This document shows positions 1 through 57,254 of a stretch of DNA of 64,000 nucleotides, piece by piece. The DNA is taken from NCBI GenBank assembly GCA_964016885.1, contig OZ024740.1, positions 90,830,001 through 90,894,000 on the forward strand. The letters are read 5' to 3'. This stretch comes from Eledone cirrhosa (taxonomy: Eukaryota). A program made the translations under genes and the position numbers. The notes beneath the pieces were generated by a model, which saw nothing but the letters and a program-made list of their open reading frames with translations, had not been told where the DNA came from and did not search any database. Position 1 is the first letter of the stretch. The number at the start of each line of letters is the position of its first letter.

Positions 1-902
1 TATTGCTAAAGCCTTACTAAACCTAATGGACTCTATTATAATTGCTCTTTTCAGAGCAAACCACCACTTGTTGTTGACGACGGCCCCCGTCAACGCTAAC
101 TAACTAGTTTTCTAATCCGGTCTCCGTAGGCCTTGCGCGCTGGTAAGGACGCGTTTAGCTTCCTGTAGCCAGGTCCTCGTCTATGAAGCATATCTAAGTC
201 AAGCACACAGATCACGAATTTGTGGTCCGTGTAGTTGACTATCTTGAATTTAGGACAGACTATGCTAGACCTATCTATTTCCCTACAAAATACTCTATCT
301 AGATATGATCTGGATGACCCTATCCGATTTGTCCAAGTCAACATTGGCACATTCGGGAAATCCAATCGGTACCTGTCAGACAGTTTAAAACGCCTGAGCT
401 GGTTGGTGAGGCTCATGCGCCCTCCTCCCCTATCCGTTAATCCCACACAGTCCCAGCGTGCATCTAAGATCTCGTTCCAGTCGCCCACTAACATTTAAGA
501 GCGGGACGTTCCAAGAAAGGTCTCCAGACGCCGGAAGAAATCAGGCCGCCCTGCTCCTGTTGGGTCATAGACGGCCACTAGCCTGAAAGCTTACCCGTCT
601 CCGCTGGTCACGTCTAATACCACCAAGTTACCTTCTGGGTCCATGGAGATGGCCCGTATGGCGAGATCCAAACCTCTTCGAAAAAGCACAGCAACTCCAC
701 CCCCCGATCACGGACGGCTGGGAGGAGCGTACACATCGTAGCCGCTGAAGATCGGTGCATCCGCCCATGCTTCGAAGATTCTGGTCTCGCTGATGGCCAC
801 TACATCTATGTTTAGTGACCCGAGGTCGTTGAGCAGGTGGCCCTGCTTCCATGACGACCCCAAGCCACGCGCATTTACGCTGCCTATTCTGAGTGAGGTC
901 AT
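1..902 (-). pseudogene. Tx1 ORF2 N-terminus (APE endonuclease), disrupted
   Basis: MTSLRIGSVNARGL...ISET, GDWN, YLDRVF and YTDHK APE motifs are split across ORFs 708-902 and 96-494 by stops. Confidence 0.9.
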
Positions 903-936
903 GTTGAAATGTAGTGGAAAAGATGGGAAAGACCAC

Positions 937-2311
937 TTACCTTACTTCTCGTAGAGGGAGGATGGTTTGTCCATCCTTTTCACTGCTTGTGGCCTCCTCC
1001 GGAAGGATGTCCTTATAAATCATCCTGGAGTGTGTTTGTCGGAAGTAACCGATGTCTTTGGGGAATTTTTGTTTTAGTGTCGTGTACGTTTTCTGTGTGA
1101 TGCGAGTGATTTGTATGTGTGGAGGTGGTGTGAACTTTTGGGTTGTTGTGTAATATTTTTCTGTTATGCTGGTGTTGTGTTGCATGTAGTGTAATAATTG
1201 GTCGTTGTTCAAATTTAATGCTGTGTAGTGTGTATCGTTTTGATTGTTTTGTTTTGTTTGCGATTGTTGTGGGTTTGTTTCTGTTACGCTTTTGGGTGAC
1301 TTTTGTGGTGTTGGTGATGGGGGTGTTGGGGTTAATGATGGTGATGCTGTTGGTGTTTGTGGTGATGGGGTTGGTGATGCTGGTGTGGATGGTGGCTTAT
1401 CTGCCCTTACTTTTTTGATTGATAAGTTATTTGTTTCCCTCTGTATTTTGTTTTTGGAGGGGGAAGGAAGAGAATGTTTTCTTTTTCGATGGCGGGTGGA
1501 ACGTGGGTCACCCTGATCTTGGGAAGTCTCTGGCCACAATAGCTTGGGACGAGTGTGAAGTCGTCACCTGTTAATGGGGCCATGGAGTTTTCTCTGGCCT
1601 CCTGTGGTGTTTCAAAGAACACGTCCACAGTTCCATATTTTTGCCTACGTCTAATCTGGGTTTTTTTTGCCCACACATGTCCCAAAGATTTTTGGATTTG
1701 GGACTCGGATGCCCGTTCCACTCAGCGCGATTTTATGTTAATTGTTCGATAAGACACGGTGCTTAGGCGCCGATGCTCCATTTTATTAGATGGGTGTGTG
1801 TGAGGCTGACACTGTAACCATCTTTCTTTACCATTTTTTTGTCTTCTTCTAATTCCTCCTGAGTTACCTGAAATGGTTCGCACTGTTTTGCTACTCTGGC
1901 AAAACTCAGGGTAGTTTTCCTTAATTTCATTGTTGCTGTTGTTGTTATCGTTATTTTTGTTATTGTTAATTTTAGTTTCAGTTGTGGTGGTGGTGGCGTC
2001 AGTGGTGCTCGGTGTGGAAGAGTTCAATTTGCTTGAATTCATTTTGATATCATCACGAGTTAATTAATTTTTTTCTTTTGTTTCTGTTGTCGCGGTGGTG
2101 GTGGGGTGGTGTTTGTCGCGGTGGTGGTGGTGGCGGCGGCGTTAACAACTGCAGTCATTGGTAATGGCGGGAAATTAATGTCTGCCTGAGACAAATTTAA
2201 AATATTGCTACTACTTATATTTATAGTGTTCGCAAAGGTAGTAATATTTACAATCGTGGTGTCGGTGTGAGGTGTTAGTTTGTGAAGAAGGAGTGAATCT
2301 GAGTCGTCCAT
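937..2311 (-). pseudogene. Tx1 ORF1 remnant, frameshifted and internally deleted
   Basis: The fragment ERASESQIQKSLGHVW...VPSYCGQ aligns with T2 ORF1 (ERATEAQIQKALGSVW...VPSYCGQ). The CCHC knuckle region is absent. Confidence 0.75.
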
Positions 2312-2564
2312 GATTTTTCCAAGAACAACTTTTGTTTGATAATTATAAAAGTATAAATTTTGGGCTCAAGGCCCCACTCTTTCCGGGTGTCCGTGTGAGA
2401 TAACAATGTGTGTGCACTTATATACAGTTAACAATAACAATTTTCCATAAATGGCAATTTTAAACTACTGAAAATAACAAACATCTGCGGAGCCCACGGT
2501 GATAAGAATTACTACGTAGGTAGTCAATAATAATAATAATAATATTACTAATAATAATAATAAA

Positions 2565-3730
<1,166 letters not shown>

Positions 3731-3952
3731 AATAATAATAATAATAGTAATAATAATAATAATAATAAGAAGAAGAAGAAGAATAAGGGAAGAAGACGCA
3801 CGAGGTGACGGAGGTCATGAAATCGCTCCCGTAAGTTTTGAATTTTTAACATATTTAAATCATTTGTGAAATAACAACTCTTAGTACAAATGCTACGTAA
3901 AGCACCCGGCTTGAGCCCCCCAAAAAGTCGGACCCAAAATATATTGTTATAA

Positions 3953-4595
3953 GGCTCAAATATTCAAATATTCAACTTTGTATTGTACACTGTATATCCC
4001 AAAAAAAATGGCTATAAATGGAAGAAGAAGAACCCCCCCCCCTCCTCTCCTCTGGCTACACTATATAGGACAGCTAAACTCACCAACACCAGAAACTAGA
4101 TACACCACCCACCCCATCATCTGTGTACACTAAACACAAAAGCATTTTCACCTTCACCGCCACCGCTCACTACGGCCATCATTACCACCACTATCCCATC
4201 ACCGCCGCCACCACCCCTTGACTCCTTCACTGCTGCTGCCACCGCTACAGCACCATCACTACAGTAATACGGCTCAAATATTCAAATATTCAACTTTGTA
4301 TTGTACACTGTATATCCAAAAAAAAATAAAACGGCTATAAATGGAAGAAGAAGAACCCCCCCCCCCCTCCTCTCCTCTGGCTACACTATATAGGACAGCG
4401 AAACTCACCAACACCAGAAACTAGATACACCACCCACCCCATCATCTGTGTACACTAAACACAACAGCATTTTCACCTTCACCGCCACTGCTCACTACGG
4501 CCATCATTACCACCACTATCCCATCACCGCCGCCACCACCCCTTGACTCCTTCACTGCTGCTGCCACCGCTACAGCACCATCACTACAGTAATAC
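3953..4595 (+). repeat. Tandem duplication (2 x ~320 bp) in the family A leader
   Basis: The unit GGCTCAAATATTC...CAGTAATAC starts at 3953 and 4271. The same duplication is at 22457 and 22775. Confidence 0.9.
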
Positions 4596-5170
4596 GGTCG
4601 CATCACCGCCACCACTGCCTCGGTATCGACATCACCACCACCACTGTCTCAGTATCGCCAACGCCGCCAGTCTCTGCTGGCTGCCACTTCCACATTATAG
4701 AATTCCTACTACTAACAAAGAGGAAGGCATCAAAATATATAGATAGACTCAAAAGAAAAAAGAAAAAACAAACAACAAAAGCAGCACAGCAACAACAGCA
4801 AAAAACGAGAAAAACAAACAGAGAAAAACAAAAACAAAAAAAGACACCCCAAAAACGTAAAGAAAATAAGAATGAAGAGAGAAGCAGGCGGACGGACAGA
4901 GAAGAGGGGGGAAAAAGTAAAACTTAAAAAACAAAAACTAAGTCAGACATTCGAATACTACATTACAATGAAACTTATGCTTATTCATTTTTGGGGCCCT
5001 TTCTGCCCGTGTGTTTGTTTGTTTATGTGTGTCCGTATACAGCGTGGTGATAATGCCACACAAGGGCCAAGTGGGATGGCGGATCCACAGATGGCTATGT
5101 AAACATACATTCGCCAATCCTCGATAAGAGTGTTTAAATATCGAACATAAACAGTTCGAATAACGGTGAA

Positions 5171-8116
5171 ATGGAGACTAGAACGTCATGTGACAGACTC
5201 TCACCCAACAGGTGCCCCCTGGCTCAGCAGCAGGAACCTGACTGTCAACCAAATACTGCTGATGTTGGAGGAAGAAGAAGAAGGAAAGGGGCCAGAACCA
5301 ACTGGACGAAAGATTTGAATAGAACTGTTATGCAATGCTACCTGAAATGTAACCCCAAGGAGAGGGGCTACAGGAGACGGATGCATAACATCTGGAACGA
5401 GATTGGTTTATTTAAATTAGATGAACAAAAATTGGCCGGGCAGGCTCGGGTAATAAGAACTAATGGGTGGATAAGCGAGCTGGAACTGGAGGAACTGAGC
5501 AGAGAGAATGGCTTGGAGATGGCGGGTGTAGTATGCCAGACAAAGCTTGAGTCACTACTGAATGGGACACTAAAAAACATAGGCACTAAAAATAGACTGG
5601 AAATAAAATACAAAACTAGGAGTAAAAAGCTAAATATTATCATAGAGGAATTGAAGCAACGCATTGTAGCAAAGAGTGCCAAAATCAGGCGATACGAGAA
5701 CAGAGTCAGTCAGTATAAACAGAACCGCATGTTCGACAACAACCAGAAGATGCTGTTTGGACAGCTTGAGGGGAAAGAAAGAGGCAACGACTTGATCCCT
5801 GGGGCGGAACAAGCTAAAACATTCTGGAGAGGAATATGGGAGCAGGATGTTAGACACAATGCCCAGGCAGGGTGGATTGAGACAGTACAGAGGGAGATCG
5901 GTGAGCAGGCACAGCAACAGACTGATTTGAGTATCACAGTTGAAACTCTTAAGGGGCAAGCCAAAAAACTAACCAACTGGAAATCACCAGGCCCAGATGG
6001 TGTGCAGGGGTATTGGATTAAACATTTAACATCCCTCCACCCGAAGCTGACGGCCATGTTCAATGACTGCTTGGTGTCGGGTGAGGTGCCAGAGTGGTTG
6101 ACAAAAGGTACCACAGTTCTGATAATGAAAGACCGAATCAAGGGTAATGATGTTACCAACTATAGACCTATCACATGTCTGCCCGTAATGTGGAAACTGT
6201 TGACGAGCATTGTGTCTGAGGAAATCTACCATCACCTCCACACAAACAACTTGTTGCCGGACGAACAGAAAGGATGCCGAAAGAAGTCACGTGGTACAAA
6301 GGACCAGTTGCTTATTGATAAGATGGTAATGGGGAATTGCAGGAGGAGACACACTGATCTTGCCATGGGATGGATAGACTACAGAAAGGCATTTGACATG
6401 GTGCCTCATTCCTGGATCACCAAAAGCCTGGAGATCTTCAGGTTGGCAGATAACATCAGACAGTTGCTGGGCAGGAGTATGGGGTCCTGGGCGACAGAGT
6501 TGACATCAACTGGAGTATCCTTGGGAAGCGTGAAGATCAAGAGAGGTATCTTCCAGGGAGATAGCCTGTCCCCTCTGTTGTTTGTCCTTGCCCTGATGCC
6601 CTTGACCATTATGCTGCGAAAAGTGAGAGCAGGATACAAGTTGGGAAGGGGAGAGCTTACCATCAATCACCTCCTCTTCATGGACGATCTTAAGCTCTTC
6701 GGGAAAAGTGAGAAGGAGTTGGATGTGCTTGTTGACACTGTCCGTATTTTCAGCAGTGATATATGTATGCAGTTTGGTATTGGTAAATGTGGAGTCATTG
6801 TGATGAGGACGGGTAGGTTGAGCAGAAGTAACGGGATCCAGATACCAACAGGTGAGATGATAAAGGAAATTGACTCTGAGGAAGGATACAAGTATTTGGG
6901 CGTTCTGGAGGCTGATGGCATAAAGAACAAAAAAATGAAGGAATTGTTAAGAACTGAATACATTCGGAGAGTAAGGAGCGTATTGAAGTCACATCTGAAC
7001 AGCAGAAATGCCATAAGCGCAGTAAATTCCCGAGCTGTGTCTATTATTAGGTACAGTGCGGGAATTCTGAGATGGAATGTTGCTGAACAAAAAGAAATGG
7101 ATAGGAAGACTAGGAAGCTATTGACTATCTACAACATGTTCCACAAGAGGAGTGATGTCGATAGACTCTACCTAAGGAGATCTGAGGGTGGAAGAGGTCT
7201 TATCAGCATAGAGGACTGTGTTCAGATGGAGAAAAACAACCTATACAAATACGTGACCTATAGTAAGGAGCCAATGCTCAGAGCTGTACTGAAGGAGGGG
7301 ACAGTAGGCCAGGGGATATCCAAGGAGGAAATAACATCAAGGAGGAAGAGCAGCCTTAAGGGAAAATCCCTTCATAGTACCTTCTTTGAGAAAACTGAAT
7401 TTAGAGATCCACAGACATGGAACTGGTTGAGAAGAGGAGACCTCAAAAAGGCTACAGAAGGAATGCTAATGGCTGCGCAGGAGCAGGCCCTCAAAACGAA
7501 GTGGTTGAAGCACCATATCTACAAGGAGGAGGCTAGCCCACTGTGCAGGATCTGTGGAGAGAGAGAGGAGACTGTGGCTCACATTGTGTCCGAGTGTAAA
7601 CACCTAGCCCAGACCCACTATAAGGGCTGGAGACACGATGTGATGGGCAGGGTGATCCACTGGCACCTGTGCAAAGTAAACAATCTACCACATTCTGAGA
7701 AATGGTATGAGCATAGGCCAGAGGCGGTGATGGAGAACAGTCAGGTGAAGGTGCTGTGGGATTTTAGGATACAGACGGACAAAAAACTGGAACACAATAG
7801 ACCTGACCTGGTGGTTGTGGACAAAGAAAAAAGATCGTGCCTGATTGTGGATGTGGCCTGCCCGTTCGACACGAGAGTGCAAGAGAAGGAGAGGGAGAAA
7901 ATTAACCGATACCAGGACCTAAAGTGGGAGGTGAAAAGGATTTGGAACTGCCATGAAGTCAAAGTGATCCCGATTGTCATAGGCGCACTGGGGACTATCT
8001 CCAAAGGTTTCCAGGGATGGTTAAAGAAAATCGGACCCTTCACGCTTTTTGGAACGCTTCAAAAGGCATGCTTGCTTGGAACGGCAAGAACCCTCCGATA
8101 CGTCCTGAATATCTGA
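5171..8116 (+). CDS. RT-RLE protein (R4/Dong clade), 981 aa, internally deleted
   Basis: SPGPDG, YRPI, AFD, QGDSLSP and FMDD RT motifs; CRIC..H...EC knuckle; RPD..D..K RLE. Confidence 0.9.
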   Translation: METRTSCDRLSPNRCPLAQQQEPDCQPNTADVGGRRRRKGARTNWTKDLNRTVMQCYLKCNPKERGYRRRMHNIWNEIGLFKLDEQKLAGQARVIRTNGWISELELEELSRENGLEMAGVVCQTKLESLLNGTLKNIGTKNRLEIKYKTRSKKLNIIIEELKQRIVAKSAKIRRYENRVSQYKQNRMFDNNQKMLFGQLEGKERGNDLIPGAEQAKTFWRGIWEQDVRHNAQAGWIETVQREIGEQAQQQTDLSITVETLKGQAKKLTNWKSPGPDGVQGYWIKHLTSLHPKLTAMFNDCLVSGEVPEWLTKGTTVLIMKDRIKGNDVTNYRPITCLPVMWKLLTSIVSEEIYHHLHTNNLLPDEQKGCRKKSRGTKDQLLIDKMVMGNCRRRHTDLAMGWIDYRKAFDMVPHSWITKSLEIFRLADNIRQLLGRSMGSWATELTSTGVSLGSVKIKRGIFQGDSLSPLLFVLALMPLTIMLRKVRAGYKLGRGELTINHLLFMDDLKLFGKSEKELDVLVDTVRIFSSDICMQFGIGKCGVIVMRTGRLSRSNGIQIPTGEMIKEIDSEEGYKYLGVLEADGIKNKKMKELLRTEYIRRVRSVLKSHLNSRNAISAVNSRAVSIIRYSAGILRWNVAEQKEMDRKTRKLLTIYNMFHKRSDVDRLYLRRSEGGRGLISIEDCVQMEKNNLYKYVTYSKEPMLRAVLKEGTVGQGISKEEITSRRKSSLKGKSLHSTFFEKTEFRDPQTWNWLRRGDLKKATEGMLMAAQEQALKTKWLKHHIYKEEASPLCRICGEREETVAHIVSECKHLAQTHYKGWRHDVMGRVIHWHLCKVNNLPHSEKWYEHRPEAVMENSQVKVLWDFRIQTDKKLEHNRPDLVVVDKEKRSCLIVDVACPFDTRVQEKEREKINRYQDLKWEVKRIWNCHEVKVIPIVIGALGTISKGFQGWLKKIGPFTLFGTLQKACLLGTARTLRYVLNI

Positions 8117-8196
8117 GGCTGCAGGTAGTGGCTTGATATTCAATCCAACGGACTTTACAGTTAACCAACATCAATGACTGAGATTCAAGGAATAAC

Positions 8197-8241
<45 letters not shown>

Positions 8242-8244
<3 letters not shown>

Positions 8245-11200
8245 GGAAGATGACGCACGAGGTGGTAGAAGGTCATGAAATCGCTCCCGTAAGTTTTTAA
8301 TATTTAACGTATTTAAATCAATTGTGAAATAACAATTCTTAGTACAAATGTTGCATAAACCACCGAATCATGTCCCATAAAATTTCGGAATATATGATAT
8401 TGTTATATCGTTCAAATATTCAATTTTGTATTATATATTTTGTATTCAAAAAAGAAAATTGTTATAAATGGAAGAAAACACCCTCTGTCTACACTATATA
8501 GAACATCCAAATAACAGCAAGTTCACCAACACCAGAAACTTGATACACCACCTACCCCATCACACTAAATATAACAGCCAGATAAGGCAATTTCACCACC
8601 ACCACCACCAATCCCAGCATCATAATAATAATTACTATTATTATTGTCTCAAGTTTTAACAAAATGTTTAATTCCAATTTTACGGGAATATGTCAACACA
8701 ATTTATATTAAACATACGCGTCACAAACTCATAGATACTACATATCACAAAACTCAGTAACGACAACGCCACCGCCGCCACCATTCCATCCATCATTGCT
8801 ACCACTATCCCATCACCGCCGCCACCACTCCTTCATTGCTACCACCACTATTCCCCTGTTAACTTGAGAGAGAAAGGGGAAGGTGGCGGTATCACTAGAC
8901 AAGGGAGAGGCTAGCAAAAGATATAAATAGATTGACTTAGTGACCTGGCCAACGGCCAAACGTCAACATCAACAACTATGGCACTGCTGGCTCACCCCTT
9001 CCTCACCAACAATATAAAAAGCCCCAGCACCACCACCGACATAGCCAACAACTATAACAGGCACCTTCAGCAAAAAGCATATTATATTATTGTAATGCAC
9101 TGGGTGATTGCTGGCCTTGTGCCTGGAGACAATTATTAATAATTTCATTCTTAAGCCATGCAATGCTCACATTAAGGAACCACTCATGATAATAACAATT
9201 TAAAAAAAACAACAAAAAGAAAACCCCGTGACCAAGAAATACCGGGATGGCGGCCGGCGGGGAATAGCCGTGTCTCTAGGGGAGAACGACCCCCTCTAGT
9301 CTTGGTTGACACTCGTTCTAGAAGTGGTAACACGAAATGATTACCCCTTGGCGGATAAGGATAACACGCGACAAAATGAAGTAAATGTCTAATGATAAAA
9401 TCTCATACCGGATCGGCCGTCACCCGGGTAAAAAAGGGCCGCGTCCCTCAGAGAGGAACCAGACTGGGGTCGAAAAATCAGCTAATGGTTCAAACCTTCC
9501 CATCACTTCGGAGCTGGAGACCTCCCTTAACCGGAATACTCCTACTGTTGGCCCTCCATGCTCACCACCAAGAAATCCAAAGAAAAAGAGAGAAAAATGG
9601 TCAAGGGAAGATAATAAAGAAGTCCTTGAGGATTTCTACACTGCCATGTACTACCCATCAAATACATCAAATACAGAACAGACATATATCAACTGGAAAA
9701 AGAAACATCCCCAAAACAGAGGCTATATTGACAGTAACAAACTAGCCAATATACGAAGAAATATTGTAAGAAAAAAGTTACTAACTGATATAGAAATTGA
9801 TCAGATCAAGCTATCGGCAAAAAGTCAGCGAAGGGAAAATGAAACATGTGTCAGTGAAAACGAGGTAAATTGTAACACTTCGAATCCCAGGGTTGGGGTG
9901 GAATCACTGGCAACAGAACAAATTAAAGAAAGGATCGAAAAAGTGGAGGGAGTGCATGCTCAAGATGAAACTCCAAATGAAAATAATGAAATGGTAAATG
10001 ATAAAGAAATGAATGAGAATGGACTTGCCAACTTGAAGGATGAAATTATGATCGAATGGATGAAAATGAAAGAATCTGACATGGGGCAACGAGACACCCT
10101 CCGTAAGATCCAGAACTCCAAACAGAACAAAAAGATAATACACAATACTAACATAATTCTCAAAAACATTATCATCACAAACAAACTAAACATTACTGAT
10201 TTAAATCATCTCTATTATGTATCGGCTAAAGTCACCACTCACTTATGTGGAGTGAAGATTAAAAAACAAAGGAATTCCCACAAGAAATCTACTTGGCAAG
10301 AGAACATCAATCGCCAAATAAACCTTCTCCGATCTGACATAGAAATTTTAACAAACTATAAAGTAGTTGAACATGTTAATCAAACTAAACTTAGAAATTT
10401 GAAAAAAAAGTACAGTATAAAATCAACAAGTGACATAGACATGCTGATAGAAATAATCAAGCAAAAAGTGTCGGCCAAAGCTGCTCGTATAAGGCGCTTT
10501 GAAAAACGATCTAGATTCTATAAGGACAATAATATGTCAAAAACAACCAAATAAACATCTACAGAAAAATTGGTAAGTCAACAATAACTGCTCAATCAAT
10601 ACCACCCAAGGAGGAAGTGCAAGAATTCTGGGAAAAGATCTGGGCCGAAGAAAAAGTTCATAACATACATGCCCCATGGATAGACAGACAAATGAAAGAT
10701 ACAGCTCACCTTGAGGAACAAATATGGGAAAATATAACAGTTGAATAGTTGCGCTTGGCTCTAAGAAAAACCAGCAAATAGAAATCCTCAGGAAAAGACA
10801 AAATACAAAACTTTTGGATAAATGCCTTCACAGAGTCTCATGAGCTGTTAGCCCAACTTTACCATGAAATAGTTAAGGAGCCAGAAAAGATACAATCATG
10901 GCTAGATAACGACATTACATTCCTGCTTCCGAAGAATGATGAGACAAACAATCACAAAAATTACAGACCGATAACTTGCTTGACCACAATGTATAAAATT
11001 TTAACATCAGTCCTCACTGAATACACATATGACCACCTGATAACAAATGACCTATTTCCCATTGAGCAGAAAGGGTGTAAACGAGGCTTATATGGCTGTA
11101 AGGATCAGCTTCTGGTTAACAAAATGCTACTGGAAGATTGTCATTATAGACACAAACATCTATCGATTGCTTGGATAGATTATAAAAAAGCATTCGATAG

Positions 11201-13178
11201 TTTGCCACACAGTTGGATTGAAAAATGTTTAGAGATTTTCAAAATATCCCCCGTTGTCAGGAGGTTTGTGTCATTCAGTATGAAGACATGGAAAACGACA
11301 CTCCTTTTGAATAGTGAAACAAAATCACTGGAAGCTGGAGAAGTTAATATTAATTGTGGAATTTTTCAGGGTGACTCTTTATCACCGCTTTTATTCTGCA
11401 TCGCCCTTATACCATTAAGAAAAATGCTCAATGAAACAAAACATGAATATAAAGTCTATGACAAAACCATTAATCACTTGTTCTACATGGATGACCTGAA
11501 ACTATTTACGAAAAATGATGGACAATTGCAAGGGCTATTATCCACTGTGGAGCAGTTCAGTGATGACATTAAAATGGAGTTTGGACTAGATAAATGCGCC
11601 AAAGCAACGTTCACCAGAGGAAAGCTGCTGAAGAGTTCAGACATTAATCTTGATTGGGGGAACGTGATAAGAGAACTTGATCAAGAAAAAAACTTACAAA
11701 TATCTAGGTGTTTGTGAAGGAGACGGAATCAAGCACTCGACAATGAGGGAAAGGATAAGGAAGGAATGTTACCGCAGAGTAAGAGCAATCTTAAGAACGG
11801 AATTGAATGCAAGGAATAGGATCGATGCCATAAACACGCTTGCCATACCAGTAGTAACCTACAGTTACAATGTCATCAACTGGTCAAGCACAGAGATCCG
11901 TAGGCTCGATACAAAAATTTGAAAATTCTTAACCATGCACAGAATGCATCTCCCTAAGGCAGATATAGATAGAATATATCTCCCTAGGAAAGAAGGAGGA
12001 CGTGGGTTAATCCAGTTAGACATTGCGTTGAAAACTGCAACAATTGGATTATCTACATATCTAAGGGAATCACATGATTGGGTGATCAAACTGGTTTTGA
12101 AACACGAAAGCATCAAAAGATCATATTCCATTACAAAAGATGCACAAAGATACAGTAATGGACTACAAATTTCAGAAGTCCCATTTACTGCTGAAATGGA
12201 AAACACAGAAAAAGCAAAGCAGGTAAAAGTAACTGCAAAGAAAGAACTGCTACCAAAGCTGGCTAAGAAATGGCAAGAAAAGCCTCTGTATGGAAAATAC
12301 CCAGAGCGAGCTAACAATCCTGATGTTGACAAAACTTTAACCCATCAGTGGTTGGCATCCTCTGGACTGAAATCGGAGACTGAAGGACTGATTATATCAG
12401 CACAAGATCAGTGTCTGCCAACAAAATATTACCAAGCCAACATAATAAAAAATGGGTGCAGCCCATTATGCCGTGAATGCAAAAAACAACCAGAGACCAT
12501 TGACCATATAATTTCAATGTGCAGTCCTATAGCTCTAACCGAATACCTAAACAGGCATGACAGAGCTGCACAATACATACATTGGATAATGTGTAAGCAT
12601 TTTGACCTGCCCTATCAAAAGAATTGGTGGGAGCATCAACCACCTCCCATACTTGAAAAAGATCACATCTCAATCTTGTGGAACTTTAGCATCCAAACAG
12701 ACCGAAAAATAGATGCAAATAGACCTGATATAATATTGAAGGACTTTAAAAAGAGGGTATGCTTGCTAATTGATATGTCTGTTCCAATAGACAAGAATGT
12801 ATCTATAAAAACATTTGAAAAATTGAGCAAGTATAAGGACCTGGAGAGAGAAATTGGAAAAATGTGGAAATTGAGAACTAAAACAATACCAGTGGTTGTA
12901 GGCGCTCTGGGAATGATACCTAAGGGGTCTAATGATTACATATCGCAAATCCCAGGAAACCCGCGTATAGGAGAAATACAAAAGATAGTACTAATGGGAA
13001 CTGCCCATATACTAAGGAAGATTCTGTCAATATAAGTACATCACCAGTCTAAACACTAACGATGCATGTGTGAATATGTATGTTCTTTCTTGAACATGGC
13101 GGACCTTGTTGTCTCTTGAGGTCACTGGTTGTGACTTGGTGATAACTCGTATGAACATAAAGCAAGATAAATGCAACT

Positions 13179-13180
<2 letters not shown>
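8242..13180 (+). mobile_element. R4/Dong-like family B, apparently full-length defective copy B1
   Basis: Leader, broken ORF, 3' UTR and TAA tail. The 5' boundary is inferred from the preceding TAA tract. Confidence 0.85.
9385..13035 (+). pseudogene. RT-RLE ORF of family B with frameshifts and stops
   Basis: ORF pieces 9385-10554, 10980-11717, 11677-11922 and 11935-13035 give QGDSLSP, YMDD, CREC..H...C and RPD..D motifs. Confidence 0.92.
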
Positions 13181-16284: not shown

Positions 16285-16544
16285 TTTCTTTATTAACCAC
16301 AAGGGTTTACATAAAGTAGACATTAAGGACAGTGCAGGACAATGCAGGACGGTACAAATGGGCATTTCTGCGTGTAAAAAAACAAAAACAGAGGATGTAA
16401 CAAAAATAACAATGAAAATAACAATGAAAAATTCCCCAATAGGGGGGAGACTTCGGAGGGACATTTGTGGAGAAAGCCCAGTAAAAAGCCACAATGACCC
16501 TGACCACCAAGGCAAGTGCCCTCTCCCAGTTTTCCACCTTTACT

Positions 16545-19500
16545 TTACAGATATATACTCAGAGTCGGCCCATTCACTCGGGCCATTCTTGCTTCTCTCA
16601 CCCATCTTTCAACAAAATGCTGGGAAGAGAGCACTTCCTTCTCTACTCTGATTTTCCTTTTCAAATGAAATTTGAAAAAGTCAATCAGAGCATCACCGAA
16701 GAGGTAAGTGCTCGTCTTCAGCCCTTTCAAACGTGTCCACCATACTATCTCTTTCGCCATGGCCACCAGGCAGATAAAAACTGCCTGCCCTTCCCGGCTA
16801 AAGGAGGAGGGCGGGGCAATCCTCACGATGGACTCAGATGATAGCCGGATCCGTCCTAAACGCGACAGCAGGTGTTCGACATAAACCCACAAGTCAGCAA
16901 TTTTCGGACACTGGACGAGTGCGTGCAGGACGGTTTCGTCGCCCTGCGCGCATCTCGGACATGCCCGGCTGACGGCACCTCCATGCCTGTAGAGTTTATC
17001 CCGAACTGGCAAGGCTCCTCGGTAGCACTGCCAGGCCAGAGATTTCTGGAAGTTGTCCATAGGCCCTGGCCCGAAAGTTCTTCCGAAGAGATTGGCTAGT
17101 TGATTTTCGTCGACGCCTAGAGTTTCCCCAAGTACGTCGTCGCTCTTCCCCTCCACTAATCCTCTATAGAACGCCGAGGTGGAGTTTCCACCGATCACAT
17201 TGCCCGATTGGTCGAGGGCTGTGAGCGCCTGAAGACATTCCAGTCTCCAGGCGCTCCCTCTCGGTCTTCGCTTGACCCAGGACTGCAGCTCCGTCAAGGA
17301 AACGAGCTGGGGAAACACGCGTCTAGCAAACGGCGACCACACCTGATCACCGTCGAGGAAGAGGTGGAGATGTCGTAGCCTGAGCGCGTGCCTGCGCATC
17401 ATCAGCCACGGCATGCCCAGCCCTCCACGTAGCGGGTGTTGACAACAGATGGACCGCCTGACCATCGGAGCGCGTCCCTTCCACAAAAAGCGAAAGAGCA
17501 AACGCTCCATCACAGTCAGGCGAGGCTTAGGACAAGGTACGACGGTCAGGCGGTAGCAGATGACGGACGCGATGTACGCGTTAGCCACCTCCGCTCGACC
17601 TTTCAGGGATAGCTTCCTCTCGGCCCATTTCTGGGTGAGAGAAGCCACCCTGCTCGTCACCTCGTCCCAGTTTTTGTCCGTCTGGAGGTCCGGACCGAAC
17701 CAGACCCCTAGCAATTTAACCGGTCCGTCCGTCCAGCGTCCGACGACGCTGTTGGACGGCATGGACCTGCCTCTCCAGGTGCCGAGCTGCAGGCCCACTG
17801 ACTTTTCCTGGTTGATCATTGCTCCTGTCACCGCTTCGTATTCTCTTAGTGTAGTGCCGATCGCCTCGATGTGTTTGGCGTTCGACACCACTACGGTGAC
17901 ATCGTCCGCATATGCTGATACGGATCTTCCGCATCCTAGTTCGCGCGGGACCCCCCTCAACGTCTCCAGTTTGTGCAGTAATGGCTCGAGAGTCAATACG
18001 TACAAGAGGGACGAGAGGGGACATCCTTGGCGGACCGAGCGCATGATGTTGAACGGTTCCGACAGGTGACCGTTCACTCTCACCACAGAGCAGATGTCGC
18101 TGTGCATGGCAGCGATCCAGCCTCTGAAGACGGGCCCAAAGCCAGCCACCCTCAGGACTGCCGCTAGGTAACGATGGTCGACCCTATCGAAAGCTTTCGA
18201 CTGATCTAAATTGATCAAGGACCCACCCGTGCCAGGTTCCCTAGCTACCCTCTCTACGATGTATCGCATGAGGTGGAGGTTGTCGTGGATGGATCTGTCG
18301 GGAATGGCGCATGTCTGCGCCTCTCCCATCAGACCACCAACGACAAGCGCCAACCTCTTTGCTAGCATCTTGGCCAAAATCTTAAACTCTGTGTTTAGCA
18401 GAGTTATGGGCCGGAAATTGTCTATGTTATCCCCCTTGTTCGGATCCTTTCTCAGCAGTGCCACCGCTCCTCGGCTCACAGAACTGGGAATTCTCCCGTT
18501 CTGTTGCCAGTTGCAGTAGACGTCCGCCAAGAGGCCTCCGAACAAGTCTGGCATCTGTACGTAAAGTTCATAGGGCAGACAATCCAAACCAGGCGATTTA
18601 CCCCTTGTGCAGCCAGTCATTGCCTCCCTTACTTCAGCGGCTGTTATCGGCTTTTCGCAACACTTCGCCTCAGTGGCCGAGAGCCGCGGCAGTCCGTCGA
18701 GGTAGACACTAAAGTCCATCCCTCTACCCGGCCCCCCGCTGCCCCCGAACAGCTGAGCGAAGTGTCGCTGAAAAGCTTCACACATTTGCCCGGGATCGAG
18801 TAGCATGCGCCCGTCGTGGTCCACCAAAGACCGGATCGTGGCTTTGTTGCCACGACGCGCCTCCGCCACTCGGGCCCATTGAACGGCTTTCGTCCCCTCG
18901 TGTCTGAGAGCACGCACCCTAGCTCTGACAACGCAGCCTTCGTGCTTTGCATTGAAGAATTGGTCAAGGGCCAATTTCGCCGCAAGCACGTCGGTCGCAA
19001 TGCCTTTGCTAAGCGCCTCGTCTAATTTTCTAACTAGTTCTCCCTCTGCTCTATTTTTCTCTATTGCTAAAGCCTTACTAAACCTAATCGATTCTATTCT
19101 AATCGCTCTTTTCAGAGCAAACCACCACTTGTTGTTGACGATGGCCCCCTTCAACGCCCGCTTAACTAGTTCGCTAATCCGGTCTCTGTAGGCCTTGCGC
19201 GCTGGTAAGGACGCGTTTAGCTTCCAGTAGCCGGGTCCTCGTCTATGAAGCCTATCTAAGTCAAGCACACAGATCACGAATTTGTGGTCCGTGTAGCTGA
19301 CTATCTTGAATTGTGGACAGCCTATGCTAGACCTATCTATTTCCCTACAAAATACTCTATCTAGATATGATCTGGATGACCCTATGCGGTTTGTCCAAGT
19401 CCACATTGGCACATTCGGGAAATCCAATCGGTACCTGTCAGACAGTTCAAAACGCCTGAGCAGGTTGGTGAGGCTCTTGCACCCTCCACCCCTATCCGCT

Positions 19501-19964
19501 AATCCCACACAGTCCCAGCGTACATCTAAGATCCCGTTCCAGTCGCCCACTAACACTAAAGAGCGGGACGTTCCAAGAAAGGTCTCCAGACGCCGGAAGA
19601 AATCAGGCCGCCCTGCTCCTGTCGGGGCATAGACGGCCACTAGCCTGAAAGCTTGCCCGTCTCCGCTGGTCACGTCCAGCACCACCAGCTTACCCTCTGG
19701 GTCCAGGAAGATGGCCCGTATGGCGAGATCCAAACCTCTCCGAAAAAGCACAGCAACTCCTCCACCCGATCCAGGACGGCTGGGAGATGCGTACACATCG
19801 TAGCCGCCGAAGATCGGTACGAAGGCCCGTGCTTCGGAGATTCTGGTCTCGCTGATGGCCACTACATCTATGTTTAGTGACCTGAGGTCGTTGAGCAGGT
19901 GACCCTGCTTCCATGACGACCCCAAGCCACGCGCATTTATGCTGCCTATTCTGAGTGAGGTCAT
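16545..19964 (-). CDS. ORF2: APE endonuclease, reverse transcriptase and C-terminal zinc knuckle, 1139 aa, uninterrupted
   Basis: NARG/SET/GDWN/LDR/TDH APE motifs; FRPITLLN, KAFD, RQGCPLS, YADD; GGLG; CPRC...H....C. Confidence 0.95.
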   Translation of the reverse strand: MTSLRIGSINARGLGSSWKQGHLLNDLRSLNIDVVAISETRISEARAFVPIFGGYDVYASPSRPGSGGGVAVLFRRGLDLAIRAIFLDPEGKLVVLDVTSGDGQAFRLVAVYAPTGAGRPDFFRRLETFLGTSRSLVLVGDWNGILDVRWDCVGLADRGGGCKSLTNLLRRFELSDRYRLDFPNVPMWTWTNRIGSSRSYLDRVFCREIDRSSIGCPQFKIVSYTDHKFVICVLDLDRLHRRGPGYWKLNASLPARKAYRDRISELVKRALKGAIVNNKWWFALKRAIRIESIRFSKALAIEKNRAEGELVRKLDEALSKGIATDVLAAKLALDQFFNAKHEGCVVRARVRALRHEGTKAVQWARVAEARRGNKATIRSLVDHDGRMLLDPGQMCEAFQRHFAQLFGGSGGPGRGMDFSVYLDGLPRLSATEAKCCEKPITAAEVREAMTGCTRGKSPGLDCLPYELYVQMPDLFGGLLADVYCNWQQNGRIPSSVSRGAVALLRKDPNKGDNIDNFRPITLLNTEFKILAKMLAKRLALVVGGLMGEAQTCAIPDRSIHDNLHLMRYIVERVAREPGTGGSLINLDQSKAFDRVDHRYLAAVLRVAGFGPVFRGWIAAMHSDICSVVRVNGHLSEPFNIMRSVRQGCPLSSLLYVLTLEPLLHKLETLRGVPRELGCGRSVSAYADDVTVVVSNAKHIEAIGTTLREYEAVTGAMINQEKSVGLQLGTWRGRSMPSNSVVGRWTDGPVKLLGVWFGPDLQTDKNWDEVTSRVASLTQKWAERKLSLKGRAEVANAYIASVICYRLTVVPCPKPRLTVMERLLFRFLWKGRAPMVRRSICCQHPLRGGLGMPWLMMRRHALRLRHLHLFLDGDQVWSPFARRVFPQLVSLTELQSWVKRRPRGSAWRLECLQALTALDQSGNVIGGNSTSAFYRGLVEGKSDDVLGETLGVDENQLANLFGRTFGPGPMDNFQKSLAWQCYRGALPVRDKLYRHGGAVSRACPRCAQGDETVLHALVQCPKIADLWVYVEHLLSRLGRIRLSSESIVRIAPPSSFSREGQAVFICLVAMAKEIVWWTRLKGLKTSTYLFGDALIDFFKFHLKRKIRVEKEVLSSQHFVERWVREARMARVNGPTLSIYL

Positions 19965-19999
19965 GTTTAAAATAGAGTGGAAAAGATGGGAAAGACCAC

Positions 20000-22074
20000 T
20001 TACCGTACTTTTGGTAGAGGAGGGATGGTTTTTACATCCCTTTTCACTTGATCGTCTGGTGAAGGGACCGTTGAATCGTCCCTTCGGCTGGTCGTCGGCT
20101 CTTCTAAGAGAATGTCTGAGTATACTCTTCGATTGATGGTTCCTCCTAGGTCCCTGAAATCACCAACTGCGTTGGGGAATTTCGTTTTAATGTTTGTGTA
20201 TTGTTTCTGTGCTATTTTTAGCAGTCTTATGTTAGTTGGCGTTTTGATTGGTGCTGGTATTATGTAGTCCTGTTGTGAAATGTCTGTGTGTTCAATTATG
20301 TAAGTCATTAGTTTCTTGTTGTGTGTATTTATTGCCGTGCATTTGTTTTTCTGGGGGTGGGGTGTGGTTCTGCTATTTTCTTGTCGTTGTTGCTGGGTGT
20401 GTGTGTTTTGTTGTTGTGTTTGCGATGTTGGTGCTTGTGGTGGTGGTGTTGAAGGTGTTGTTGGCGGTGGGGTTGTCGCCGGTGGTGATGGTGGCGCTAG
20501 TGTGGGTGGTGATGGTGTTGGTGTTGTTGCTGCTGTGGGTCTCTTTGCAGTAGACTTTACCCTTTTCTCATTTCTTTCCTCCCTTTTCAAAGGCGACGAT
20601 GCGCTGCTTCTGCGTTTGTGCCTTCTTACGACCTTTTGCCATCTCTCTCCCACCTCACACTCCATGTCTGATTCTGTGAGGTCGGGGAGGGGTACCAACT
20701 CCACTCTTTCACTTGTTGTTGTTGGTGATGTTTGCACTGGAGTTTCTGTTGCAGCTGCATTTGGTATTGCTGTTGTTGTTGTTAGTATTTCCACTGCTGC
20801 TGCTGTTTTTGATTTCCGTGGAGTGGGTATGGGGGCCACGGGCCTATCGTTCCTGGTTGCCGCTTGTCCTGTTGCTGGTAGCCGTGGAGCCGGATTCGGA
20901 AGGAGGGGGGTTTTCTCCTTTCTCAGGGTCTTCTCGTTGCAGAAGGCCCTGAGGTGAGTCTTCGATCCACAGCGAAAGCATTTCGGGCGTTTGCCCTCAA
21001 CACTTATGGGCAGTTGAGTGCCGTTATCGAAGTCTATCACATCCGGGATAGCTTCGATGCACTCCTGGTTGGTTTGGATTAGCATCTCAATGGAGGAGCC
21101 GACCCAATCTTCTCTTACTTTTTTCTGTACTTGCAGTACAGTTGTTTTGTCCTCGATTCCGACGAGGACAGACGCGGCCAGCCAAGAAGGGGTCATTCCG
21201 GGGGGGGGGGGACGTGGGTCAGTTTGACCCTCACAGTTTTTTGCCCACAGTAGGAGGGCACCAACACCATTTCCTCGCTCCTTAGGGTCACTACTGATTG
21301 GGCCTTTGCCTCCTGGGGTGTGGCAAAAAGTACGTCTACGGTGGCATATTTTTTGCCTCGGGTGATGTGCGTTTTCCGCTGCCACACAGACCCCAAGGCT
21401 TTTTGTATTTGGGCCTCTGTGGCTCTTTCCACCCTACGGGATTTTGTACTTACTGTACGGTACGTGACCGTACAGTGCTCTTGGGTTTCGAAAAAAATTT
21501 TCGCTGCCTTGCAGATTGCTCGGTGTCCGTTCTTTGTCACCATCTTCTTCGCTTCCTCTAATTCCTCATTTGTTATGAGGATTGTTTCCAAGTTTTTCGC
21601 AATACCTGCAAATGAGATTGGTTTTTCTCTGCTGTTGTTGTTGTCGTCAGAGCTGCTGGTACTGTTGTTGTTGCTGCAGGTACTACGACTACTGCCTCCG
21701 CCGCTGTTGCTGTGGTTGTTGTTGTTGTTGCTGCTGCTAATGCTGTTGTTGTTTATGCTGCTGGTGATGCTGTTGCGGCTGCTACTGTTGTTTTCATTGT
21801 CACTGTTGCTGTTGTTATTACGGCTGCTACTGCTATTATTCCAGACGTCAGACGAATGAACTGGGTTTTCGTATTTCCCGCACACCTGTTTCGTCGCTGT
21901 CGTCGTCGTCGTGGAGAAACCTTGCACGCTTTGCACGAGACTTTTCTTTTCTTTCGTCACTTGCGAAAGAGAAGGGAGGGAGAGAGACAATCTTCTCTCT
22001 GCTGTAGTGATGATTGAGGAAGAAGAAGACGGAATGAGTGGGAGTGACGTATGAAATTTCTTTTTCGTAGCCAT
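20000..22074 (-). CDS. ORF1 (gag-like, CCHC knuckle) split by one frameshift at a G12 run
   Basis: ORF 21193-22074 joins ORF 20000-21385 at the homopolymer 21200-21211. Contains the CFRCGSKTHLRAFC knuckle and N/S- and P/T-rich tracts. Confidence 0.8.
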
Positions 22075-22310
22075 GTTGTTTTTTGTTTAAAATGAAATTT
22101 TGGGTACAAAACCCCAATAACTGGTTATTTAACCCCGAAGCGCCAAATAACGGACAGAAAGACCCCTCTCACGAGGAGGAGGGTGTCTTTATCAACAATT
22201 TGGTTCAAGTTTTAAACAATTTACAATTGTTTTAACGGTTAAAAATTACTATACCTTACAGAGCCGAGCCTCCGTCAACCATGGCATTCAATAATAATAA
22301 TAATAATAAT

Positions 22311-25300
22311 GGAAGGGAAGATGAAATCGCTCCCGTAAGTTTTGAATTTTTAACATATTTAAATCATTTGTGAAATAACAACTCTTAGTACAAATGCTAC
22401 GTAAAGCACCCGGCTTGAGCCCCAAAAAAATTCGGACCCAAAATATATTGTTATAAGGCTCAAATATTCAAATATTCAACTTTGTATTGTACACTGTATA
22501 TCCAAAAAAAATGGCTATAAGTGGAAGAAGAGGAACCCCCCCCCCCTCCTCTCCTCTGGCTACACTATATAGGACAGCTAAACTCACCAACACCAGAAAC
22601 TAGATACACCACCCACCCCATCATCTGTGTACACTAAACAAAACAGCATTTTCACCTTCACCGCCACCGCTCACTACGGCCATCATTACCACCACTATCC
22701 CATCACCGCCGCCACCACCCCTTGACTCCTTCACTGCTGCTGCCACCGCTACAGCACCATCACTACAGTAATACGGCTCAAATATTCAAATATTCAACTT
22801 TGTATTGTACACTGTATATCAAAAAAAAAAATAAAATGGCTATAAAATGGAAGAAGAAGAACCCCCCCTCCTCCTCTCCTCTGGCTACACTATATAGGAC
22901 AGCGAAACTCACCAACACCAGAAACTAGATACACCACCCACCCCATCATCTGTGTACACTAAACACAACAGCATTTTCACCTTCACCGCCACCGCTCACT
23001 ACGGCCATCATTACCACCACTATCCCATCACCGCCGCCACCACCCCCTGACTCCTTCACTGCTGCTGCCACCGCTACAGCACCATCACTACAGTAATACG
23101 GTCGCATCACCGCCACCACTGCCTCGGTACCGACATCACCACCACCACTGTCTCAGTATCGCCAACGCCGCCAGTCTCTGCTGGCTACCACTTCCACATT
23201 ATAGAATTCCTACTACTAACAAAGAGGAAGGCATCAAAATATATAGATAGACTCAAAAGAAAAAAGAAAAAAACAAACAACAAAAGCAGCACAGCAACAA
23301 CAGTAAAAAACGAGAAAAACAGAGAAAAACAAAAACAAAAAAAGAAACCCCAAAAACGTAAAGAAAATAAGAATGAAGAGAGAAGCAGGCGGACGGACAG
23401 AGAAGAGGGGGAAAAAGTAAAACTTAAAAAACAAAAACTAAGTCAGACATTCGAATACTACATTACAATGAAACTTATGCTTATTCATTTTTGGGGCCCT
23501 TTCTGCCCGTGTGTTTGTTTGTTTATGTGTGTCCGTATACAGCGTGGTGATAATGCCACACAAGGGCCAAGTGGGATGGCGGATCCACAGATGGCTATGT
23601 AAACATAAATTCGCCAATCCTCAATAAGAGTGTTTAAATATCGAACATAAACAGTTCGAATAACGGTGAAATGGAGACTAGAACGTCATGTGACAGACTC
23701 TCACCCAACAGGTGCCCCCTGGCTCAGCAGCAGGAACCTGACTGTCAACCAAATACTGCTGATGTTGGAGGAAGAAGAAGAAGGAAAGGGGCCAGAACCA
23801 ACTGGACGAAAGAATTGAATAGAACTGTTATGCAATGCTACCTGAAAAGTAACCCCAAGGAGAGGGGCTACAGGAGACGGATGCATAACATCTGGAACGA
23901 GATTGGTTTATTTAAATTAGATGAACAAAAATTGGCCGGGCAGGCTCGGGTAATAAGAACTAATGGGTGGATAAGCGAGCTGGAACTGGAGGAACTGAGC
24001 AGAGAGAATGGCTTGGAGATGGCGGGTGTAGTATGCCAGACAAGCGAGCCGGCGGGAAATGAAGGTGAGGAGGTCCTGAGAACGGAGGAACCACCCGAAG
24101 CAGACAATGATCTGAATACTGAGATAAATAATACCTGGAACAGAGATACGGCCACTGAGGAGATGAATGCTGACGGGCTAGGACAAGATTCGGTTGACAT
24201 CCTAAATTTAGTGGTAGATGAGTTGAACAATGATAGTGGGAGACCTATGAACCTGAGATTTGTAGACAGGAAAAAGTTAAAAGAAACAACAGCTAAGGTA
24301 AACAAAGTCATCCCATACCTTGAGGCGAGGATTCTTCACCAGTGCAACAATATCCTCAAAGCAACAGCAAATACGGTGAGGAAACTACTTGGTATAAAAG
24401 CGAGAGGAAACAACAGACAAGAAAGAGCAGAGCCGTGGTGGAGGAAGCGACTGAGTGGGCAAATCGGGGAAATGAGAAATGACATAGGAAAGCTTGAGTC
24501 ACTACTGAATGGGACACTAAAAAACATAGGCACTAAAAATAGACTGGAAATAAAATACAAGACTAGGAGTAAAAAGCTAAATATTATCATAGAGGAATTG
24601 AAGCAACGCATTGTAGCAAAGAGTGCCAAAATCAGGCGATACGAGAACAGAGTCAGTCAGTATAAACAGAACCGCATGTTCGACAACAACCAGAAGATGC
24701 TGTTTGGACAGATTGAGGGGAAAGAAAGAGGCAACGACTTGATCCCTGGGGCGGAACAAGCTAATACATTCTGGAGAGGAATATGGGAGCAGGATGTTAG
24801 ACACAATGCCCAGGCAGGGTGGATTGAGACAGTACAGAGGGAGATCGGTGAGCAGGCACAGCAACAGACTGATTTGAGTATCACAGTTGAAACTCTTAAG
24901 GGGCAAGCCAAAAAGCTAACCAACTGGAAATCACCAGGCCCAGATGGTGTGCAGGGGTATTGGATTAAACATTTAACATCCCTCCACCCGAAGCTGACGG
25001 CCATGCTCAATGACTGCTTGGTGTCGGGTGAGGTGCCAGAGTGGTTGACAAAAGGTACCACAGTTCTGATAATGAAAGACCGAATCAAGGGTAATGATGT
25101 TACCAACTATAGACCTATCACATGTATGCCCGTAATGTGGAAACTGTTGACGAGCATTGTGTCTGATGAAATCTGCCATCACCTCCACACAAACAACTTG
25201 TTGCCGGACGAACAGAAAGGATGCCGAAAGAAGTCACGTGGTACAAAGGACCAGTTGCTTATTGATAAGATGGTAATGGGGAATTGCAGGAGGAGACACA

Positions 25301-27137: not shown

Positions 27138-27149
27138 AATAACAATAAC

Positions 27150-45160: not shown

Positions 45161-45240
45161 CTCTTTGAGCTCTGCTCTTTGTGGAGAAAAATATCTCATG
45201 TTGATGCGTAGTCTGTCTGCAACTGGGTCCCAAGTTCATA

Positions 45241-50845: not shown

Positions 50846-51506
50846 ATCATACACCCTTATTTACATGCGCACATATGTATTTTTATACTCACATACAAAC
50901 ACCCAAACATACATACCTACCTACATATATATACATACATCCACGCTTACAAATACAAATAATAATAGGGGGATGGAGGAGGGGGAGTGGGGGGGGACAG
51001 GATTAGAGTAAATATAGGTTTCAAGAAACATAGAATATTAATCTGCATTTAGATCATAATATGTGTTTACATAGTAGTTTCAGTATTAGGAAATGTAAGA
51101 AAGAGGGCAAAATTATGCATTTTAATATAAGTAGACTATTAATTATAGGTTAACTAAATTAAAGATAGTTAATATATTGATTTCTAAGGTATATACTACT
51201 TAGGTTTATAATATTTGAAGCGGAATTTTGAAGTTAAATAGTAGTAGAGTATTAATTATAGTATAACTAAATTAAAATTATTAACGTTATGCTATCAATA
51301 TTAGGAAATTAATTTAGTAATAGGGAAAAATACCAAATAAAGTATTACATCGGTAGTAGAATATAAATTATAGGTTAACTAAATTAAAAATTATATATTA
51401 ATTTCTATAGTATATGTTAATTAATTTTATAATAATTAAAACAGATATTGTATTTTATCTATAGTAGAATATAATTATAGGTAAGCAAAAATTAAAGTTA
51501 ATATAT

Positions 51507-51595
<89 letters not shown>

Positions 51596-56132: not shown

Positions 56133-56608
56133 TAACATTATTTTAGAAATTAATATATAATTTAATTTAAATATTAGTTAACCTATAAATTTAATTTAAT
56201 TAAAATTCTACTACAGATGAGATTATAAAATATTGTGTAATCATAAATTGTGAAAAACTTTTAAATATTACTAATATATACTTTGTAAATTAATTTATAG
56301 ATTAATTTTAATTTATTTAACCTTTTATTAAAATTCCTTTACAGATAAAATATAACAAAATATCGTGTATTCAACGACAGAGAAATATTTTTTAATATTA
56401 TAGACCTAATTAATGTACAATTTAGAAATATATTTATAATTTGGTTTTAATTTGGTTAACCTAAACATTTAATTTAATTGGCTTAAAATTAAAATCCTAA
56501 TACAGATGGATTGCAGAGTGTCATGTAATCATAGACTGAGATAGGTTTTGGATGTATACCTAGTTAATATATTCTTTGCAATTTTTGAAAGAATATGTAT
56601 ATATATAC

Positions 56609-56700
<92 letters not shown>

Positions 56701-57254
56701 ATATATTAACTTTAATTTTTGCTTACCTATAATTATATTCTACTATAGATAAAATACAATATCTGTTTTAATTATTATAAACCTAATTAACATATACTAT
56801 AGAAATTAATATATAATTTTTAATTTAGTTAACCTATAATTTATATTCTACTACCGATGTAATACTTTATTTGGTTTTTTTCCCTATTACTAAATTCATT
56901 TCCTAATATTGATACCATAACGTTAATAATTTTAACTTAGTTATGCTATAATTAATACTCTACTACTATTTAACTTCAAAATTCCGCTTCAAATATTATA
57001 AACCTAAGTAGTATACACCTTAGAAATCAATATATTAACTATCTTTAATTTAGTTAACCTATAATTAATAGTCTACATATATTAAAATGCATAATTTTGC
57101 CTTCTTTCTTACATTTCCTAATACTGAAACTACTATGTAAACACATATTATGATCTAAATGCAGATTAATATTCTATGTTTCTTGAAACCTATATTTACT
57201 ATAATCCCTTCCCCCCCACACTCCCCATCCTATTATTATTTGAATTTGTAAGCG

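Follow-up and report, generated by a model that had tools for sequence, protein, structure and literature searches.

The leader that stands in front of two distantly related retrotransposon families of Eledone cirrhosa, A and B, is almost certainly the true 5' UTR of both, and it is very likely that the two families have exchanged it repeatedly. Taken as a whole, we regard the leader as probably a 5' UTR/promoter module that passes between A and B and that was derived from Tx1.

The window, i.e., the whole 64-kb stretch of DNA that was analysed, belongs to a genome of 3.0 Gb, and its first 27 kb form a chain of non-LTR retrotransposons linked via (TAA)n runs. Families A and B, with one RT-RLE ORF each, lie on the plus strand, and the APE-RT elements T1 and T2 on the minus strand. 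The features are as follows, X and Y being the two types of leader.

1..2525, minus strand: 5' part of the Tx1/L1-like element T1, adjoining a (TAA)n run
3787..5137, plus strand: 5' UTR of family A with an X-type leader and an internal tandem duplication of ~325 bp (3946-4597)
5138..8196, plus strand: body of family A, copy 1, and 3' UTR, with an internal deletion of ~450 bp
8197..8241, plus strand: (TAA)n target run, flanked by element A (3' end) and element B (5' end)
8243..8902, plus strand: shared leader of family B, Y type, a recently homogenised tract
8243..8288, plus strand: first exon of the leader, the fixed 5' start of full-length copies
8289..8454, plus strand: 166-nt GT-AG intron of the leader, exactly missing in two independent full-length B copies elsewhere
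8243..8475, plus strand: part of the leader with likeness to Tx1-like 5' UTRs, ending where these have the ORF1 start codon
8900..8950, plus strand: older tract, ~70% alike, homologous to the tail of the A 5' UTR
9230..9319, plus strand: predicted multi-helix pseudoknot, specific to B and just 5' of its ORF, with one compensatory pair change
9385..13179, plus strand: body of family B (RT, CCHC and restriction-like endonuclease region, 3' UTR, then (TAA)n), interrupted by stops and frameshifts
16286..22289, minus strand: Tx1/L1-like element T2 (ORF1 and APE-RT); T2 and A copy 2 face each other head-to-head on either side of (TAA)n
22311..27149, plus strand: family A, copy 2, with an altered 5' tip of the leader and an open RT-RLE frame of 1141 aa (23638-27063)

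The leader as the 5' end of both families

The earlier note on this DNA had claimed that a common leader precedes A and B and that their ORFs do not align as DNA, and both statements are correct. Positions 3734-4164 of A and 8191-8609 of B align at 74.7% over 446 columns (E 8e-78), and the first 350 nt of A and B give a local score of 350, against a mean of 28 and a maximum of 42 for shuffled sequences. Self-BLAST of the window shows no match between the A and B ORFs, and at the protein level the identity is 44% for the RT regions and 34% for the C-termini. The 19-mer shared at 3817, 8275 and 22321 occurs 1512 times in the genome and its reversed control not once. The leader is found at 3787, 8242 and 22311 as described, but the first motif quoted from it is present only at 3795 and 8252 and is missing from the copy at 22311, in which ~20 nt of the 5' tip differ. 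The homology does run for several hundred bp, and it goes past the end that the note had assigned to it, to ~8902, with a fainter tract to ~8950.

We class A and B as Dong/R4-type LINEs by their architecture and (TAA)n target. Both have RVT_1 without Exo_endo_phos and a single ORF (the A frame is open over 1141 aa), and both insert into (TAA)n in the sense strand. A C-terminal CCHC motif and a PD-(D/E)xK restriction-like endonuclease are typical of such elements, and both were seen, read by motif, in the A and B translations. A homolog search returned almost only unnamed proteins, and P0001 (1710 aa), considered as an ORF1 fusion, turned out to be an internally duplicated RT-RLE protein. Dong is a known TAA-targeting group and is described together with DongAg and DongBg as TAA-targeted members of the R4 clade (PMC3812793); A and B resemble Dong in their single RT-RLE ORF and in their insertion in (TAA)n. 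Families of the Dong-R4 and L1-Tx1 groups are on the list of those recently active in Octopus vulgaris (PMC13282606).

The junction between leader and B is not unique to the window locus, as all of the 30 best B-leader matches continue into the B ORF, and likewise all of the 30 best A-leader matches continue into the A ORF. An unselected sample comprised 90 copies in genome order, namely the first 30 listed sites of the 19-mer and 60 of the 70 that follow. Within 1.8 kb, the A ORF is reached by 64 of them and the B ORF by 20. Of the remaining six, T2 interrupts one and two break off after ~100 bp; two more run on in A-type UTR, and one arrives at A at +1745, so that 85 of 90 run into an A or B ORF. 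Viewed from the side of the ORF, exact matches just before it numbered 1123 for B and 1891 for A, and the first 30 of each were taken. Seventeen copies of each family start at the leader tip, 6 B and 4 A copies are truncated in the first 240 nt of the leader, and 7 B and 9 A copies are truncated further down at scattered positions. No second fixed start downstream of the leader was found among these 60 copies, indicating that full-length copies do not start downstream of it. Moreover, the start of the leader is identical whatever sequence precedes it. Leaderless old B copies were sought among 20 copies of the older type, of which one was full-length and carried the leader, another had its start in the late part of the leader and all others were truncated.

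The possibility raised earlier, that the leader is a separate non-autonomous element or a host repeat standing in front of both families, is very improbable. Such a unit should be found alone, and 3 of the 90 copies (L084, L159 and L144) indeed have no A or B sequence beyond the leader, but their ends do not coincide or a Tx1 insertion interrupts them, and there is no stand-alone family with a common 3' end. Neither a TAA run nor a 3' tail lies between leader and ORF, and the entry of 85 of the 90 copies into an ORF speaks for the leader as a 5' UTR of A and B.

Several minor observations concern this region. A (GAA)n stretch that matches the first bases of the leader is often present between the (TAA)n run and the leader, e.g., at 3769-3786, possibly due to slippage at second-strand priming. 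The splice acceptor is part of a ~325-bp unit of the A leader that is in tandem at 3946-4597 and at 22450-23101, and A copies carry from 1 to 3 such units. In older A copies (L321, 1480-1520 on the minus strand, and L091) a short motif just 5' of the ORF shows a likeness to part of the first exon of the leader that may be due to chance.

Exchange of the leader between A and B

In a tree of 88 of the 90 sampled leaders, from which two short copies were left out, the leaders fall into two types with a support of 100/100: X, with 61 A and 2 B copies, and Y, with 18 B, 4 A and 3 unassigned copies. The Y-type A copies constitute their own ORF clade (in a tree with X rows thinned to 16), and X leaders were seen in the B copies L062, L085 and L196. 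The consensus sequences of A with a Y leader and of old B share 95.5% identity along 698 nt, after which they diverge abruptly; the X and Y types as such are ~79% alike. As this high identity of non-coding DNA, ending sharply, is found in families whose proteins are 34-44% identical, we conclude that the leader was exchanged and not inherited. That A and B each kept the leader of a common ancestor by selection is barely conceivable. Both are Dong-type and share a target, as descendants of one ancestor would, and yet the near-identical non-coding tract is too young for proteins so far apart, and leader types X and Y cross the A/B divide. The suggestion of a captured or exchanged module, also made in the earlier note, is supported by leader types that cross between the families, by the 698-nt near-identical tract and by hybrids that have amplified.

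The relative age of the UTR tracts was judged from BLAST identities, trees and alignments. By these measures the 50-nt tract of B that is ~70% like the tail of the A UTR points to an older layer of exchange. A recent capture from A by B has amplified. With queries spanning two junctions, 40 of 40 scored matches in one case and 31 of 40 in the other cover the joint of A leader and B body, ~70 in total and at least that many. In all 20 hybrids that were fetched, an A-type UTR and a B body meet at identical coordinates; their flanks differ and lie on several contigs, and the leader tip is X type in 14 of the 20, those in which it was called. The hybrids nest within the young B clade (99/95), and as their junction types do not separate in the tree they may go back to one capture followed by later deletions. 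The nesting of the hybrids in a young B clade, and their presence at dozens of sites, indicates that the A-derived leader supported further amplification of B.

The joints sit in repeated C/A-rich units, and in 52 of the 90 leader copies the 3' end of an A or B element lies just upstream. Elements with a restriction-like endonuclease are capable of template jumping. We propose that the reverse transcriptase would jump to the RNA of the sister family or of a neighbouring copy, or that the cDNA would anneal there, with the repeated C/A-rich units 400-700 nt into the UTR serving as the switch site. Deletion between head-to-tail neighbours would generate the same product and is nearly as likely. 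The position of the joints and the A or B 3' ends upstream fit both mechanisms, of which we slightly favour template switching.

Both 5' UTR recruitment and spliced retro-copies are already established in mammalian L1, where young 3' bodies acquire the 5' UTR of a co-existing family, the recombinants found subfamilies, and three candidate mechanisms including template switching and deletion between neighbours are discussed (PMC3600994). The exchange between A and B is similar in that a 5' UTR is recruited, recombinants seed subfamilies and the same mechanisms are open. Unlike the L1 exchange described there, which took place within one lineage, the partners here are RLE families at 34-44% protein identity, and the module likely came from an APE-type Tx1. 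We found no publication on 5' UTR exchange between RLE families or on capture from Tx1 in a literature search with little coverage of subscription papers and Repbase entries, and a prior description is possible. Most of what is known about the gain of promoters by non-LTR elements, and about trade in them between deeply diverged lineages, comes from mammalian L1, within a single lineage; in the present case, distant lineages appear to be brought together by a common insertion target. As parents, recombinants and spliced copies reside in one genome, they can be counted and dated. The relevance of these findings is to transposon biology, and they do not amount to a new kind of system.

Splicing and formation of the 5' end

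Contigs of run X1 showed a joint that skips 8289-8454, with GT and AG at the ends of the skipped sequence. Runs X5 and X6, which carry the labels of other organisms, yielded no more than scattered pieces at low depth. The exact 166-nt GT-AG segment is missing from two full-length B copies (L304 and L306) that belong to different B subfamilies, and the reversed control gave 0. A scan for copies leaving the sequence at the donor returned 8 matches, of which 4 are unrelated; the others are these two and a tandem pair whose joint lies 5 nt short of the acceptor. The spliced copies are two exact ones and one tandem pair 5 nt early among ~1500. Deletions starting at two control positions were not found (3 matches, none of them a deletion, and 0 matches). 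No microhomology was seen by eye at the joint, and donor and acceptor are present in the consensus of all six subfamilies. The exact loss of a GT-AG segment in two independent copies indicates that leader RNA was transcribed and processed by the spliceosome. In the tests of T5 and T2 no spliced Tx1 copies were found, and one of the 8 matches of a further splice scan of Tx1 heads was a 1-nt deletion seen in L049.

The spliced copies are reminiscent of SpIREs, the spliced retro-copies of human L1 that make up ~2% of full-length L1 (PMC5860796). In both cases rare full-length copies lack a GT-AG intron within the 5' UTR, with the donor near the 5' end, whereas the frequency here is ~0.1-0.3% and the element is of the RLE class.

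Given the fixed 5' start and the spliced retro-copies, the leader likely holds an internal Pol II promoter, a prediction made from sequence. Transcription would begin at +1 of the leader, and if so neither host read-through nor self-cleavage would be needed. Splicing could also happen in read-through RNA, and we considered that the leader is not a promoter at all, its RNA arising by read-through transcription and its 5' end being fixed by RNA processing or by a preferred stop of reverse transcription. The Dong element of silkworm, which like R4 carries a 5' HDV-like self-cleaving ribozyme, cleaves itself at its 5' end (PMC3774820), and the A or B 3' ends just upstream of 52 of 90 leader copies make read-through plausible. 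Nevertheless this explanation is improbable, as the start is unchanged whatever lies upstream, the first ~55 nt fold weakly and differently in the two leader types, and no HDV-like fold is found by descriptor in the 5' regions of A and B, nor any credible Rfam match. The descriptor scan for an HDV-like ribozyme gave 0 matches in A, B, T1 and T2, and Rfam scans of the 5' regions gave chance matches only. Whereas the silkworm element as described starts with a self-cleaving ribozyme (PMC3774820), A and B start with a UTR of 1.0-1.4 kb that holds the spliceable leader, in which no such ribozyme was found.

The four-helix pseudoknot predicted at 9230-9319 is specific to B, with 97.9% of the cells pairing across 16 copies. 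It shows one compensatory change, dividing the copies 7 to 9 and probably a single event, and judged by eye it lacks the usual catalytic junction. Possibly it is the original 5' structure of B.

The presence of parents, recombinants and spliced copies in one genome makes promoter capture, and a possible switch from self-cleavage to internal promoter in RLE elements, directly testable. The findings may bear also on RLE-based insertion tools, as a hint that a foreign 5' module can drive such an element.

Likeness of the leader to Tx1-like 5' UTRs

The families T1-T5 are regarded as L1/Tx1-like, a label that is given by architecture and microsatellite targeting. T2 has Exo_endo_phos and RVT_1, and ORF1/ORF2 of T1, T3 and T4 are homologous to it; T5 is known from its 5' 1.1 kb alone. 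T1-T5 begin directly after (ATT)n and run antiparallel to A and B within the same runs. T5 was recognised as a fifth Tx1-like family (L118, minus strand, 920-1135, and L260-L279) with 1980 candidates at first look. A natural comparison is with Kibi and Koshi, which we take to be members of the Tx1 clade. T1-T5 resemble these microsatellite-targeting elements (PMC3812793) in being APE-type LINEs in short tandem repeats, and differ from Kibi and Koshi as described there by their location in (ATT)n, where they share runs with A and B in antiparallel orientation.

In the Tx1-like families the 5' UTR ends after ~205-230 nt at the start codon of ORF1. At the corresponding position a start codon is present in the leader too, followed by C/A-rich low-complexity DNA with no long frame; in the B copy of the window this position is 8458-8460, the codon is mutated and no long frame follows. 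An intact upstream ORF in the leader was considered and rejected, as only short frames follow the start codon. In five Tx1 families the likeness extends collinearly through 230 nt, beginning at a common start and ending at a common start-codon position, and T2 has the 5' UTR that matches the leader best.

A profile of the leader was searched against masked loci totalling 668 kb. Labelled Tx1 5' heads on the same strand made up 11 of its top 16 matches (best E 0.07), and a twelfth was T5, recovered before it was labelled as Tx1-like. Within the window the best E was 0.23. The six leader consensuses reach summed Z values of 17.7-20.9 against five Tx1 UTRs, which is the range of the Tx1 families themselves against the other four (14.1-21.7), and the maximum among 2915 AT-matched genomic windows, which match base composition and not host signals such as the splice donor and the A-rich start context, is 12.6. 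A Tx1-only profile scored the B consensus at -1.7, inside the range of shuffles, and several pairs of leader and Tx1 are not significant under block shuffling.

Based on these likenesses we propose that the leader was probably captured from a Tx1-like 5' UTR. A transfer from Tx1 to Dong, and not the reverse, is suggested by the start codon, which serves ORF1 in Tx1 and is vestigial in A and B. A close donor was not found among the five Tx1 families examined. Leaders with (ATT)n in front of them, the arrangement expected of a Tx1-type donor, were looked for, and the 4 matches are all A-type leaders or elements; a second donor pattern found family T3 only.

It is also conceivable, if rather unlikely, that A and B exchanged the leader as shown while its likeness to Tx1 is convergent, or that A/B and Tx1 both took it from the first exon and intron of a host gene. 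The shared features are partly generic (a splice donor placed early, an AT-rich stretch and a start codon in A-rich context), the pairwise leader/Tx1 scores are modest, and a donor segment of this kind is also seen in a third family, C, with a summed Z of 10.6 against the Tx1 UTRs. Capture from Tx1 accounts better for a collinear likeness of 230 nt in five Tx1 families that exceeds all 2915 controls, and for the blind recovery of an unlabelled Tx1 family by the leader profile.

Extending the capture from Tx1 further, we tentatively envisage, with somewhat less than even confidence, that a promoter cassette captured from Tx1 would be shared among Dong lineages of the RLE class that use one microsatellite as a landing pad, replacing ribozyme-dependent read-through, that each swap could seed an expanding subfamily, and that family C may carry an older copy.

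Family C (L348-L392) was noted as a third Dong-like family with ~64% DNA identity to the RT of B. It has its own long 5' region, of which the part examined ends short of the 5' end, and the segment resembling the leader's first exon and donor lies internally. Many UTRs of family C contain an inserted SINE-like repeat, the same very abundant repeat of which a fragment lies at ~9092-9130 in the B 5' UTR (a spike in read depth with loose ends). Elsewhere in the window, at 45205-47205, 52073-56132 and 51000-57207, there are further long ORFs and a large inverted duplication.
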